Source: Gammaproteobacteria bacterium
GTDB lineage: Bacteria; Pseudomonadota; Gammaproteobacteria; JABCZS01
Direction: 5' to 3'
Length of the DNA stretch: 64,000 nt
NCBI GenBank assembly: GCA_021773275.1
Contig: JAJFKJ010000013.1
Location: 2,092-66,091 of the forward strand
Positions 511 to 38,990 of the stretch are shown in pieces. The position numbers were made by a program, and so were the translations under genes. The first letter of the stretch is position 1; the number at the start of each line of letters is the position of its first letter. The notes beneath the pieces are model-generated. The model searched no databases, was not told the origin of the DNA, and saw only the letters and a list, made by a program, of their open reading frames with translations.

Positions 511-609
511 GTGTAGGGGTCGCACCCAGTGCGACCCGAAAAATCCCCCGCCCGCCGGTGGCGGCCTGCCCCCTTTAAAAAGGGGGCGAATATAGAGTGC
601 CGCCCCTAC
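511..609. repeat. Composite REP element: GTAG-headed REP hairpin (513-537), a family-2 structured repeat (543-589) and a terminal ...gccgcccctac
   Basis: gtaggggtcgcacccagtgcgaccc, then atcccccg-[gccgccggtggcggc]-ctgccccctttaaaaagggggcga, then tgccgcccctac. Homologous copies are listed elsewhere in the window. Confidence 0.7.
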
Positions 610-2870
610 TAGAAAAAGAAGTTCTGATGGCTGTGAACTTCGGTCGCGGTTTTATCTGCAATGGACGGTTCGACGACAGGCGCTGGCAATCTTCCTATAA
701 AGCCTGCACCCGCAAGCACGGGGCTAGATGTTGCTGATGATGCTACAGATGCGGGTGCAGAAGCTGGCTCTGGCTCCGCCTCTGGCGCTGGCGAATTTTT
801 ATTGTCAGCGTCCAGCTTTAATGATTTATTAATTTCATTACTAAGAGCATATTTTTGCTCTGTGAACTCACTACGAGAATAACAAGCAATGCCGAACAAC
901 GCTAGCAAAGTGATAATACCGCCAATAAACATAACAACACCTAGCGAGCCGCCTTGGCTAAAGCCAAATATTGCGTCATCCACAAAGGGATTTAAAACAA
1001 AACCGATGCTAGCTAGGGTAATGCTTGTCATGGCTGCAGCTGTGTACCCATTAACACTGCATGTAAGCAAGGCCTTGTTATTATCCCCAAGCTGCTCCCG
1101 CAGGCCTTCTAATTTTTTTCGTGCGTCTTCCAAGCTAATCCGATCTTTAGGTTTCTGCTGCAACAAATCCACAACCACAGCACGCATTTGTGATTCTACT
1201 TCAAGCTCCCAAAGCCAGGGGCGCTTTATATAGGCTGTAACATGGCCTGGCAGATTAAACTGGTCTTTATCAATCCAAACCCTATTGCTAAAAATAGTAG
1301 CAAGCACAATACCCAGACTGTACCTGTCTGCCGCCTGTGTTGCTTTGTTAAGCTCCGGCGCACGGTAGCAAGCTGGAAGTGCTATTATCAAATCGGCTTC
1401 AATTTTTTCTTTTGCTTGCTCGGCTTGTTTAAAAACATCGGTAACAGCCCTTTTCAATGCATTTTTGTCACCCTCAATTAACGCTTCCTTTCTTGTTAAT
1501 TTGTTTTTTAATGCAGCATGCTCAAGATCTTCAGAAATTTCACTTAAAACCTTGCTTAATAACTCATGATTGGCATCAGTAAATGCTAAATTTATTCTGT
1601 GTACAAGATTAGTCTTTAAATACCCCAGATGATTATCCAACACCTTGCCAAAAAATTTTATTGTGTGCCGGTTAGACTTAGGATGGCCCTCTTTAAGTGC
1701 TTTGAGCAAGCTAAATATACCTTCAAAATTCCTGCCTTTTTCCAACGGTATACCAACAGCCTTGGCCAACGCTTCTAATCTAAGTAAGGCTTGAGCCTGT
1801 GGCAAATCCAACATTTTCACTAGGCTTGTTTTTTTATTATTTTCATTTAAGAACAGCAAAGGAGTAGCTTCATCATGCATTGATGCGTAATCAATGATGG
1901 TAACTTTTTCGCCTGTTGGTTTTTCATTGTTTACAATGAAATTGTTTGGCCCCAGATCACCATGTACATAATGCTTGTCATGCTTAGGTGCATGCAATTT
2001 CTCTAGCGCAGCAACATACTCCAACGCCAAATCAATTTTTTCAATGACTGTTTGTTTCTTGTGGGTTCTCTTGCCTGCTTGAGGGCTATAGGGGTGGAGT
2101 AAACCCTGTAAATTTGTGCCGGCCACCCAAGACATAATTAGATAAGTTTTTGAGGCATCTGTTTTTACCTTTTCCTGCTGGCCATAGTATTCTTGAGGGG
2201 TTTGAAGGCCGTCGTTTCTATTATAAGCTTTATAGTGCTCATCATTGCTTTTACTGGTTTTCCAGAAAAGTGCAAACGGATCTGCTATTTTTTCATCTCT
2301 GCGATGCACTGTGCCAATCTTTTCTTCACCCTCTACCACTTTGATGTTTTGTATTTCTATGTCATGGCTAGCATCGATTACTGAATCATAAAACACTTTA
2401 ACGGCAACAAATTCTTTTGTATTTAAATTTTGGCCCAGCTTTACCCGCCCAAAAGACCCCCTGCCTAGTTCAACATCGGTGATGGCAATACACTCACCTT
2501 TTGTTGTGGAAAGTAATGAATAAGGGAGTGCACGCGCATCGATATTATCTGCATCGAGCCCGAATATTAATTCATCAATATTATCTAGGCTGCGCTGGCT
2601 TTTATCTTCAAACTTTCTTGTCGTACGCTCAAGCTTGCTGTTTTTATTTTTGTCAGCCCAGGCTAAAGCCTGTGTTCGTGCGTCTTTCGGTAATAGATAG
2701 CCTTCTGAAAGCCGGTTTATCTTTTCTCCACCCGAACGATTGAACGTATAGCGGATATAGGAATGCTCCCCATGAAAACGAGGGGCATCCAAGCTGTATT
2801 CACGCTGCATCACCAGCTGCGGTGGCACCTGTTGACTATTTGCCTTGTTGTTGTCTTTATCGCCACCCAT
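609..2870 (-). CDS. Eukaryotic-like Ser/Thr protein kinase with C-terminal double transmembrane anchor and Pro/Ala/Ser-rich tail (effector-like)
   Basis: Gly-rich loop GRGSFGRV, beta3 lysine VAVKVF, catalytic loop HGDLGPNNFIV, an IIDYASM (DFG-position) motif, a coiled-coil region, then two hydrophobic helices near the C-terminus. The stop codon TAG lies inside a REP ctactag. Confidence 0.75.
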   Translation of the reverse strand: MGGDKDNNKANSQQVPPQLVMQREYSLDAPRFHGEHSYIRYTFNRSGGEKINRLSEGYLLPKDARTQALAWADKNKNSKLERTTRKFEDKSQRSLDNIDELIFGLDADNIDARALPYSLLSTTKGECIAITDVELGRGSFGRVKLGQNLNTKEFVAVKVFYDSVIDASHDIEIQNIKVVEGEEKIGTVHRRDEKIADPFALFWKTSKSNDEHYKAYNRNDGLQTPQEYYGQQEKVKTDASKTYLIMSWVAGTNLQGLLHPYSPQAGKRTHKKQTVIEKIDLALEYVAALEKLHAPKHDKHYVHGDLGPNNFIVNNEKPTGEKVTIIDYASMHDEATPLLFLNENNKKTSLVKMLDLPQAQALLRLEALAKAVGIPLEKGRNFEGIFSLLKALKEGHPKSNRHTIKFFGKVLDNHLGYLKTNLVHRINLAFTDANHELLSKVLSEISEDLEHAALKNKLTRKEALIEGDKNALKRAVTDVFKQAEQAKEKIEADLIIALPACYRAPELNKATQAADRYSLGIVLATIFSNRVWIDKDQFNLPGHVTAYIKRPWLWELEVESQMRAVVVDLLQQKPKDRISLEDARKKLEGLREQLGDNNKALLTCSVNGYTAAAMTSITLASIGFVLNPFVDDAIFGFSQGGSLGVVMFIGGIITLLALFGIACYSRSEFTEQKYALSNEINKSLKLDADNKNSPAPEAEPEPASAPASVASSATSSPVLAGAGFIGRLPAPVVEPSIADKTATEVHSHQNFFF

Positions 2871-3144
2871 GCATGACCTTTAATATAATATGTGCGAGTT
2901 ACCAAGCTCATTCTACCTAAGACTCACTTAAAATACAATGCTTGCTAAGCGTAAGTATATGATTTTCAATAAAATAAGGCATGAATTAAGTGTCTGATTT
3001 TGTAACAAAATGTAAAGCTTGTGAACTTTGATAAATATCCATATAGATCAATGGCTTATCTATTTACCCCTGCGTGCTTTTGGTATCGCGCAATGGTATA
3101 CTTACTTTATAGTATGTTGTTTAACTACTTTTGAGTAGAGAAGT

Positions 3145-38196: not shown

Positions 38197-38919
38197 CTAG
38201 ATTTTTGGTTTTTTATCAACATGCACATTAAGTTCATCTTCATGCCGCTCTGCTGCCATAATGGTCTCATCCACAAACACATTAGCCGCTTTTCTTTTCT
38301 CGGTTTTTTCTAAACTACTCGGCGCTGCTTGTTGCTCATGGCCCTCAATTACAGCCTCTAATTTTCCAGCTTTATTTAAAATGCCCGCCATCGAAGGGTA
38401 GACTTTGCGGCCACAGGCTGTAACGGTATCGATGCGCAGCGCTTTGGCTATGGCCAGCTCAGGATCGTGAATAAAGGTAATACCATCCGTGCCTGTAGCC
38501 GGGAAATCTTCATTGCCTGCAGCTGTTCTTCTACTTTCAGCCACATCAAATTCCGCTTCCGTCATCGAGGTCAGCACCACAACACTAAAACCCATTGCTT
38601 TAAGCGCTGTTAATTTTTCCATCAGATACGCCAAGACACCGGTGCAACCTGCAAGATTGCGTGCTTTCCAGGTGTCTATTTGTTCAGGCGGTATCGGTGC
38701 GCCTGGGCCTGGTAAGGTGATGAAAATGGTTGGTTTAGCATTTTGACCAATGTTTGCTGCTTCTAATTTTACCCTTGCATCGCCAGGGACTGCATAAGTA
38801 TAAATGAATCCGCCAACACTAAGTGCTCCTAGATTAGTAGGCCCATTTTGCATAATTACCTCCGTGTATAAAAATAAAATAACAAGGATTAATGTACCGG
38901 TAAAAATATTTTTATGCAA
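38197..38919 (-). CDS. Exported GrdA-family-like protein, Cys-type (signal peptide/TM at N-terminus); function unknown
   Basis: 240 aa. N-terminal hydrophobic helix, then TIFITLPGPGAPI, LAGCTGVLAYLMEKL, FSVVVLTSMTEAEFDVAESRRTAAGNEDFPATG and FIHDPELAIAKALRI. It is paralogous to the downstream ORF, and the pattern matches the GrdA core. Confidence 0.4.
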   Translation of the reverse strand: MHKNIFTGTLILVILFLYTEVIMQNGPTNLGALSVGGFIYTYAVPGDARVKLEAANIGQNAKPTIFITLPGPGAPIPPEQIDTWKARNLAGCTGVLAYLMEKLTALKAMGFSVVVLTSMTEAEFDVAESRRTAAGNEDFPATGTDGITFIHDPELAIAKALRIDTVTACGRKVYPSMAGILNKAGKLEAVIEGHEQQAAPSSLEKTEKRKAANVFVDETIMAAERHEDELNVHVDKKPKI

Positions 38920-38923
38920 GGAA

Positions 38924-38990
38924 AAACCCCCGCCACGCGCGCCCTACGCGCCCGCGTGACTGCCCCTTCACAAAGGGGGCGACCATATTA
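38924..38990. repeat. Family-2 structured repeat (copy C)
   Basis: aacccccg-[ccacgcgcgccctacgcgcccgcgtga]-ctgccccttcacaaagggggcga. Confidence 0.6.

Follow-up and report, generated by a model that had tools for sequence, protein, structure and literature searches.

A hairpin-spaced intergenic repeat of probable intrastrand-triplex kind in a gammaproteobacterial genome, and the linkage of its relatives to DUF559 genes

A 64,000-nucleotide stretch of the genome of a Gammaproteobacteria bacterium (GenBank assembly GCA_021773275.1, contig JAJFKJ010000013.1, positions 2,092 to 66,091; here called the window) contains three copies of a short repeat, each with the same flanks and each with a different internal hairpin. 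What is this repeat? Is it a transcription terminator, a structured RNA, the remnant of a transposon, or a DNA element of another kind? A preliminary description of the window proposed a transcript-stabilising or terminator module, a protein-binding cassette or a small structured RNA, and matched the repeat to no described class; the latter was mistaken at the level of kind, since the three-block layout is that of the BoxC/PIT/TMECO repeats (PMC4666352). We consider it probable that the three copies are orphan members of an interspersed family of DNA repeats of the intrastrand-triplex kind (class II purine motif), like the BoxC, PIT (potential intrastrand triplex) and TMECO repeats of Escherichia coli and other bacteria. 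The kind is known; judged from the sequences, what is novel is a hairpin in the second loop and a different sequence in the blocks.

The pattern CCCCCG-N10-40-CTGCCC-N6-14-GGGGGCGA has exactly three matches in the window, all on the plus strand (545-589, 27882-27932 and 38927-38982), and none in 100 dinucleotide-preserving shuffles of it. The three copies with fixed flanks that had been reported are therefore real. Partial patterns also matched three times, against an expectation of 0-0.1. Counting the A/T tails, the elements occupy 541-589, 27878-27932 and 38923-38982, all on the same strand; the ends formerly given for the second and third (27962 and 38990) lie too far out. It is the minus strand, the sense strand of the genes, that is informative. 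On it each copy is laid out as GCCCCCTTT-loop-AAAGGGGGC-AG-(hairpin)-CGGGGGATT, and the reading common to the copies is TCG-CCCCC-TTT..AAA-GGGGG-CAG-(hairpin)-CGGGGG-ATTT. What had been called the 5' box is the complement of CGGGGGATT, which mirrors the purine arm AAAGGGGGC with T or A opposite A. It is a mirror and cannot complement the C run a second time, since the flanks are placed on the wrong sides for Watson-Crick pairing. This relation between the 5' box and one arm of the 3' hairpin had gone unrecognized, and the three fixed blocks form one unit.

Copy 1 (541-589, minus strand) reads TCG CCCCC TTTTT AAA GGGGG CAG - GCCGCCACCGGCGGG - CGGGGG ATTT. In its first hairpin (568-587) the pyrimidine block GCCCCCTTT pairs with the purine block AAAGGGGGC; the hairpin of loop 2 (551-565) is CCGCC-ACC-GGCGG, with a 5-bp stem; and the third, reverse-Hoogsteen block (541-550), CGGGGGATTT, mirrors the purine block and corresponds on the plus strand to the former 5' box. 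Copy 2 (27878-27932, minus strand) lies in the spacer between ftsH (stop at 27945) and folP (ATG at 27863). Its first hairpin (27909-27930) is GCCCCCCTT-TTGT-AAGGCGGGC with one C/C mismatch, its loop-2 hairpin (27888-27906) is ATAATGAC-GCA-GTCATTAT with a C-GCA-G triloop, and its third block (27878-27887) is again CGGGGGATTT. Copy 3 (38923-38982, minus strand) lies between an open reading frame (ORF) resembling PRA-PH/MazG (ending at 39006) and an ORF of 240 amino acids (38197-38919). Here the first hairpin (38962-38980) is GCCCCCTTTGTGAAGGGGC, the loop-2 hairpin (38933-38959, 27 nt) is imperfect, CACGC(GG)GCGC-GTAGG-GCGCGCGTG with C-GTA-G/GTAGG at its centre, and the third block (38923-38932) is CGGGGGTTTT. 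A perfect internal palindrome had been claimed for every copy. The claim stands for copy 2 (8-9 bp) and fails for copy 1, where CCGCC-GGT-GGCGG pairs over 5 bp and not over a perfect 6, and for copy 3. Loop 1 is 2-4 nt long, and loop 2, the AG with its hairpin, measures 18, 22 and 30 nt in the three copies.

Three blocks in a single strand define a class II purine-motif intrastrand triplex: a pyrimidine block, its purine complement and a mirror image of that purine block (Holder et al. 2015, PMC4666352). A finder written for this layout (blocks of 7 nt with no more than one mismatch in each, and a loop 2 of at most 45 nt) returned exactly the three copies from the window, each on the minus strand. 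The first two blocks are Watson-Crick complements and give a first hairpin of 8-9 bp in copies 1 and 3, as had been described for the 3' module (about 8 bp); in copy 2 that description holds less well, the stem having one internal mismatch. The third block follows the rules G.G-C, A.A-T and T.A-T in all three copies, with at most one mismatch in 7. In the wider family introduced below, AAAGGGGGC goes with CGGGGGATT in 52 copies, with T often opposite A, and subfamilies with asymmetric blocks keep the mirror (AAAGGGAGG/GGAGGGATT, AAGGGGAGG/GGTGGGGTT and CGGGGGAAG/GATGGGGGG). The three-block mirror architecture is shown by these sequences.

How close is this element to the repeats of E. coli? 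Both have the order pyrimidine, purine, mirror-purine on one strand with blocks of about 9 nt, and both are G/C-rich, intergenic, interspersed in multiple copies, at times arranged as facing inverted pairs, and variable in presence between close relatives. Both kinds are also found beside DUF559 genes. They differ in their blocks, which have C5/G5 cores with T3/A3 extensions here and are CCCTCNCCC/GGGNGAGGG there. No match to the family consensus was found in E. coli, where the TMECO consensus is CCCTCNCCC-N3-6-GGGNGAGGG-N3-GGGNGAGGG. They differ further in the second loop. Of the loop lengths of the E. coli kind (3-6 nt for loop 1, 3 nt for loop 2), the first is matched here and the second exceeded, loop 2 being AG plus a covarying hairpin of 9-41 nt and not 3 nt (TTA or CCG). 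Here the orientation is strongly biased with respect to the upstream gene, whereas for E. coli the absence of such a bias is reported (PMC4666352). The element is therefore of the same kind as TMECO and not of the same sequence family. The published ITxF search limited loops to 1-6 nt (Holder et al. 2015, PMC4666352), and its authors describe no version with a hairpin in loop 2. Intermediates exist between the two forms. Loci L177 and L207 combine the same first hairpin with a loop 2 of 2-5 nt, and at L167 the motif is CCCTCCCTTT-GAA-AAAGGGAGG-TCA-GGAGGGATT, where the third block has its A shifted to the mirrored position. A G-quadruplex, which has reportedly been proposed for the E. coli motif in a preprint, was rejected for the present element, as the fixed blocks give only two G runs.

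The preliminary description had made the idea of a repeat family depend on further copies elsewhere, and dozens were found in other genomes. The pattern used in a first scan of a genome collection was too weak, giving more than 119 matches that were mostly chance occurrences in high-GC genomes. The true relatives among them, with the same architecture, were low-GC loci of proteobacterial metagenome-assembled genomes (MAGs; L071, L089 and L104), and look-alikes occurred in Anaerolineae. With a stricter pattern, 57 metagenome contigs (37-71% GC) yielded 61 further copies. The distribution is wide over both base compositions and taxa. These copies share features beyond the pattern that was forced on them: a TTTGAAAAA loop with stem extension, the CAG and a short hairpin spacer. 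Their first hairpin is nearly always TCGCCCCCTTTGAAAAAGGGGGCAG and their tail CGGGGGATTTG. The spacer CCGAGTATTCCGAGG recurs unchanged at L071, L143 and L155, and CGAACGCAGTGAG in many high-GC contigs; identical spacers at different loci indicate that whole elements have been copied, spacer included. Searches of phage and plasmid DNA for the element gave nothing useful and a scan of viral contigs gave 14 matches, mostly chance; the family is not phage-borne.

The spacer hairpin varies in sequence and is conserved in structure. Spacers range from 9 to 41 nt across the family. In the 19-nt class 84% of cells are paired, seven of the eight pairs have changed on both sides, and the covariation score is 0.73 versus 0.19, with none of 500 shuffles as high and slid controls at 0.15 or less. 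The 13-nt class gives the same covariation signal and has conserved tandem G.A/A.G positions. The earlier picture of a structured family with fixed flanks and a copy-specific hairpin is borne out by the sequences and by this covariation. Which strand is constrained? The centre C-GNA-G occurs in 25 of 58 unique copies and its complement C-TNC-G in none of the 58, and the G-rich strand is therefore the structurally constrained one. Mini-hairpins of the d(GCGNAGC) type are extra-stable in DNA, and GNA triloops are stable in RNA too; because of the latter, the C-GNA-G loops are compatible with either nucleic acid. The element spacers share with the d(GCGNAGC) hairpins the C-GNA-G centre, here on the G-rich strand, and differ in serving only as the spacer within a larger unit.

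Could the element act in RNA, at the 3' ends of transcripts? In this main rival explanation the two hairpins and a U-rich tail would terminate transcription or block 3'-5' exonucleases in the manner of REP elements. Gene context speaks for it. As had been described, the copies lie at the 3' ends of or between minus-strand genes, all three being intergenic and 12-23 nt past the stop of a co-oriented minus-strand ORF. Copy 1 follows a kinase-like ORF of 753 amino acids (609-2870) and precedes a REP-like repeat and a tRNA-Met gene. Elsewhere, among 56 unique copies with crude gene calls, a neighbour lying upstream within 300 nt shares the strand of the element in 23 cases versus 6, and the downstream neighbour is convergent in 20 versus 11. 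Ten copies lie between convergent genes and one only between divergent genes, and at two loci a facing pair of elements provides one copy per gene. The context is not random, and these counts show a preference for the 3' side of co-oriented genes. It would fit either a strand-specific process together with tolerance for 3' regions, or an RNA role at 3' ends. Folding predictions give two adjacent hairpins in RNA of either strand, the minus (sense) strand included, and leave the last block unpaired.

The element itself looks less like a terminator than its position suggests. It shares with rho-independent terminators one or more G/C-rich hairpins followed by a T-rich stretch, past stop codons. 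The T stretch is not adjacent to a stem, however, as CGGGGG separates it from the nearest one. By a terminator consensus (a stem with a T run within 0-2 nt) only copy 1 was flagged, and this by way of an alternative pairing of 5 bp; neither copy 2 nor copy 3 was. Termination, one of the functions first proposed, finds no support as the primary explanation, and the same holds for the other functions proposed with it. Copy 2 lies inside the conserved ftsH-folP-glmM cluster, between ftsH (27945-29879) and folP and 15 nt ahead of the folP start. Many high-GC copies end in ATTTGC, with three T only. An RNA role leaves unexplained why the tail mirrors the purine arm in the subfamilies with asymmetric blocks, and PIT elements are reported to be without terminator or promoter activity (work cited in PMC4666352). 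The element is not a canonical terminator and matches no Rfam family: at the gathering score Rfam 15 found only two tRNAs in the window, and at E<=1 it found nothing relevant in ten element-bearing loci. We regard a role in RNA as unlikely to be the basis of the family, and it could exist as a secondary effect.

Another possibility is a cis-regulatory RNA switch, in which the C run would pair with either the proximal or the distal G run and so control the downstream gene. One C5 run and two G5 runs do permit mutually exclusive pairings, copy 2 directly precedes folP, and sense copies occur 11-47 nt ahead of the DUF559 genes discussed below. However, the copies have no downstream gene in common, and many are followed by a convergent gene or by none; together with the lack of an Rfam match, even at E<=1, this also speaks against the small structured RNA that had been suggested. 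The distal block mirrors the proximal one and does not repeat it, so that its flanks cannot pair with those of the C block. The ftsH-folP site in related genomes adds a further objection. The closest relatives of the window's FolP have 82% and 78% identity, followed by others at 67% or less. In the 82% relative (L121) the ftsH-folP spacer holds the element, with a spacer hairpin identical to that of copy 2 and a first hairpin that has changed at several positions and still pairs, and the 5' C run has been lost while the distal G run is kept. The same loss led us to reject a long-range C5:G5 helix closing a terminator. Taken together, these points make a switch scarcely credible.

At the same site in the 78% relative (L122, 2010-2300) the element is absent and its place is taken by three units in tandem, each of about 60 nt and based on CCCTCACCCTAACCCTCTCCC-type sequence, which read as the E. 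coli-like triplex type. In a relative at 65% (L123) the element is also absent and the ftsH-folP spacer is 17 nt. Its presence at this site in L121 and absence there from L122 and L123 show that the element is lineage-specific, yet able to persist for long at an orthologous site.

Their neighbours offer a lead on how such elements might spread. At L132 three tandem sense copies are followed by a small gene and then by an antisense copy past its stop. This gene belongs to DUF559 (Pfam PF04480, a Vsr-like PD-(D/E)xK fold; E-values 1e-32 to 1e-35). Five of the 57 element loci carry a DUF559 gene, versus none of the 119 first-scan loci. In four of the five (L132, L146, L153 and L167) a copy of the element directly abuts the gene; at L177 the copy that was searched for is about 9 kb away, and the DUF559 gene is preceded by a variant without the spacer hairpin. 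Loci L153 and L146 share a unit of about 590 bp that consists of a sense motif, a promoter-like TTGAC-N17-TAATT, the DUF559 gene and an antisense motif, in different upstream contexts. As a separate observation, the element tail runs into TTGAC(C/G)-N17-TAATT at these loci (L153 745-790; L146 3020-3062), or into ATTTGCTYTTGAC in orphan copies, many of them high-GC; in sequence, the tail resembles an outward sigma-70 promoter, directed towards DUF559 where that gene is present.

The linkage extends beyond the window's own type of motif. Eight DUF559 genes of a plasmid collection were chosen before their flanks were seen, one from each of eight genera (Sphingomonas, Azospirillum, Neisseria, Photobacterium, Deinococcus, Escherichia, Synechocystis and Sinorhizobium). 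Within about 10-250 nt of every one of them there are class II motifs of the locus's own sequence type, in many cases to either side. Candidatus Berkiella aquae, found through a homologue of the L132 protein, has motifs of the window's G5-plus-hairpin type, namely five sense copies in tandem upstream of the DUF559 gene and an antisense copy 9 nt past its stop. All nine motifs of this 20-kb locus lie within about 2 kb of the gene. Class II motifs also stand beside DUF559 genes in Methylomicrobium lacus, Geoanaerobacter pelophilus and a Dehalococcoidia MAG. In E. coli MG1655 the DUF559 gene ycjD (1351407-1351760, minus strand) is 168 nt from the published TMECO no. 9 (1351204-1351239). Over the loci examined (L132, L146, L153, L167, L177, L181-L188, L203-L208 and L218, the last being E. 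coli MG1655 1350200-1352000), all 17 independent small DUF559 (YcjD-like) loci, from about 15 taxa, have class II motifs within about 10-250 nt, against a background of 0.13 class II motifs per kb at control loci. The linkage is tight, and a frequent layout has a sense copy upstream and an antisense copy past the stop.

Other features of these loci were noted. The Berkiella aquae array (L203 9429-9972) has a period of about 122 nt over its five copies. In the tandem array at L132 (1-480) two units (110-184 and 298-372) carry the first 25 codons of the DUF559 gene. The cassettes of DUF559 and motifs (L203-L214, L187) often lie beside genes for N6_N4 methyltransferase, DUF1156 or ResIII/DEAD helicase, and the methyltransferase is split into two ORFs at some of them; this neighbourhood is restriction-modification or defence-like.

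Might the element instead be an ordinary REP/REPIN, or a MITE (a miniature transposable element with inverted repeats) derived from an insertion sequence, moved by a Y1 transposase of the window and with G/C blocks that serve only as its recognition sequence, without a triplex? The ingredients are at hand. The window contains a Y1 (IS200/RAYT-like) transposase ORF (30726-31298, plus strand; Pfam PF01797, 32 bits), the genome contains GTAG-tagged REP-like repeats, and the inverted pairs that flank a gene in other genomes have a REPIN-like layout. The GTAG-tagged family in the window (GTAGGGGTCGCA-N5-TGCGACCCG; 509-538, 4581-4610, 4650-4677, 21530-21584, 23073-23100 and 48876-48903) is separate from the triplex-type element, one of its copies lying 3 nt from copy 1. 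The Y1 ORF is bracketed by a direct repeat (30601-36 / 31290-325) that is unlike either family. The element, however, has neither a GTAG nor a CGTC tag, the repeat that flanks the Y1 ORF is a different one, and in other genomes it is DUF559 rather than a Y1 transposase gene that the element flanks; at the 13 DUF559 loci with listed genes no neighbouring Y1 gene was noted, in a reading of the lists where no search was aimed at Y1. Movement by the Y1 transposase is accordingly a distinctly improbable explanation. The ends of an IS200/IS605 element were rejected (no adjacent tnpA/tnpB, and a Y1 ORF with other flanks), and so was an integron attC site, as no R/L boxes can be read in the sequence.

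REP/REPIN elements with their RAYT transposase are among the closest known systems. In both systems the repeats are short, structured and intergenic, many copies are orphans, the 3' sides of genes are preferred, and a few inverted copies bracket a small gene of nuclease type. They differ in the partner, here a DUF559 protein of the PD-(D/E)xK (Vsr-like) fold and not a HUH Y1 transposase, with mobilisation by DUF559 hypothetical, and in the repeat, which has no GTAG tag and is made of three mirror-symmetric blocks rather than a single palindrome. A bolder proposal, which we put forward tentatively and judge somewhat less than even, is that small DUF559 nucleases are dedicated partners of intrastrand-triplex repeats across bacteria. 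The arrangement of triplex motif, DUF559 and inverted triplex motif would then be an autonomous selfish element, an analogue of REPIN/RAYT, whose nuclease recognises folded or mirror-repeat DNA, and BoxC/PIT/TMECO would represent its orphan motifs in E. coli, as the hairpin-spacer variant would in the window. The literature that we found contains no link of DUF559 or ycjD to repeats or triplexes, although our coverage was incomplete and a prior description is possible. Holder et al. mention neither ycjD nor DUF559, and report no association of their motifs with mobile elements or with the functions of flanking genes; 18 TMECO loci are listed for the 4.6-Mb E. coli genome (PMC4666352).

How would an intrastrand-triplex element work at these sites? 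On the G-rich strand the pyrimidine block GCCCCCTTT is the Watson-Crick partner of the purine block AAAGGGGGC; the spacer is an AG followed by a mini-hairpin free in sequence and conserved in structure; and the third block CGGGGGATT mirrors the purine block according to G.G-C, A.A-T and T.A-T. When single-stranded, as the lagging-strand template or as the non-template strand of a transcription bubble, this strand would, by analogy with the E. coli motif, fold back twice, first into a hairpin and then into a triplex with the mini-hairpin as its turn. In the window this is the minus strand, which is the coding strand and, because the GC skew of the plus strand is uniformly negative, probably also the lagging-strand template. 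The constraint would act on single-stranded DNA of the G-rich strand, a view that derives from two published properties, the stable single-strand triplex formed by the E. coli motif in vitro by circular dichroism and nuclear magnetic resonance, and the failure of purine-motif triplexes to form in RNA (PMC4666352). Earlier work on such repeats includes Hoyne & Maher 2000 (as cited in PMC4666352). The Vsr-like DUF559 nuclease, its gene bracketed by inverted copies, would spread or maintain the family much as RAYT proteins relate to REPs, and effects on neighbouring genes, such as protection of mRNA 3' ends by two stable hairpins, would be a by-product.

Several observations weigh against this explanation. 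The window has no DUF559 gene, and we know of no transposition or homing chemistry for DUF559. At L121 the C and G runs of the first hairpin have decayed while the third block was kept, contrary to what a strict triplex constraint predicts. The orientation bias of 23 versus 6 is expected of an RNA-level 3'-end element as well. The class II finder gives about 1.1 matches per shuffled window, so that the triplex layout alone is weak evidence and the significance is carried by the identity of the family. With a G5 core, only the flanks, where C lies to one side and A/T to the other, make mirror symmetry informative; the pattern used for the metagenomes forced W-T-T after the G run, so that most of that set cannot test the flank independently. 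Finally, the E. coli motif gave no triplex signal in double-stranded DNA or in dimethyl sulfate footprinting in vivo (PMC4666352).

The main value of these results lies in a widened BoxC/PIT/TMECO kind and in the DUF559 linkage that has been exposed. The kind is broader than the search space of published work, extending to a second loop with a structured hairpin in bacteria of 37-71% GC. BoxC/PIT/TMECO repeats have been known since the 1990s, and to our knowledge they have been given neither an origin nor a partner protein nor a function. The linkage, which includes ycjD of E. coli, merges the question of the repeats and that of DUF559 into a single biochemical one; if the partnership proposed above were true, a single account would cover where BoxC/PIT repeats come from, what they do and what DUF559 does. 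For annotation, such sites should not be called terminators or small RNAs.

The window is chromosomal DNA of a gammaproteobacterial MAG with about 45% GC. About 20 kb of it (609-20798) consists of minus-strand ORFs between tRNA-Met (381-457) and tRNA-Leu (21770-21852). These two tRNA genes are close neighbours in many gammaproteobacteria (secG-tRNA-Leu ... tRNA-Met-rimP), and the stretch between them may be an island or prophage. Farther along, a HigA-family antitoxin gene (44532-44846) adjoins an ORF for a 92-amino-acid partner (44846-45124) beside carA. A direct repeat of 161 nt (94% identity; 55996-56156 / 61129-61289) brackets an ORF of 1521 amino acids (56174-60739), within which there is a tandem duplication of 66 nt (59474-59605).

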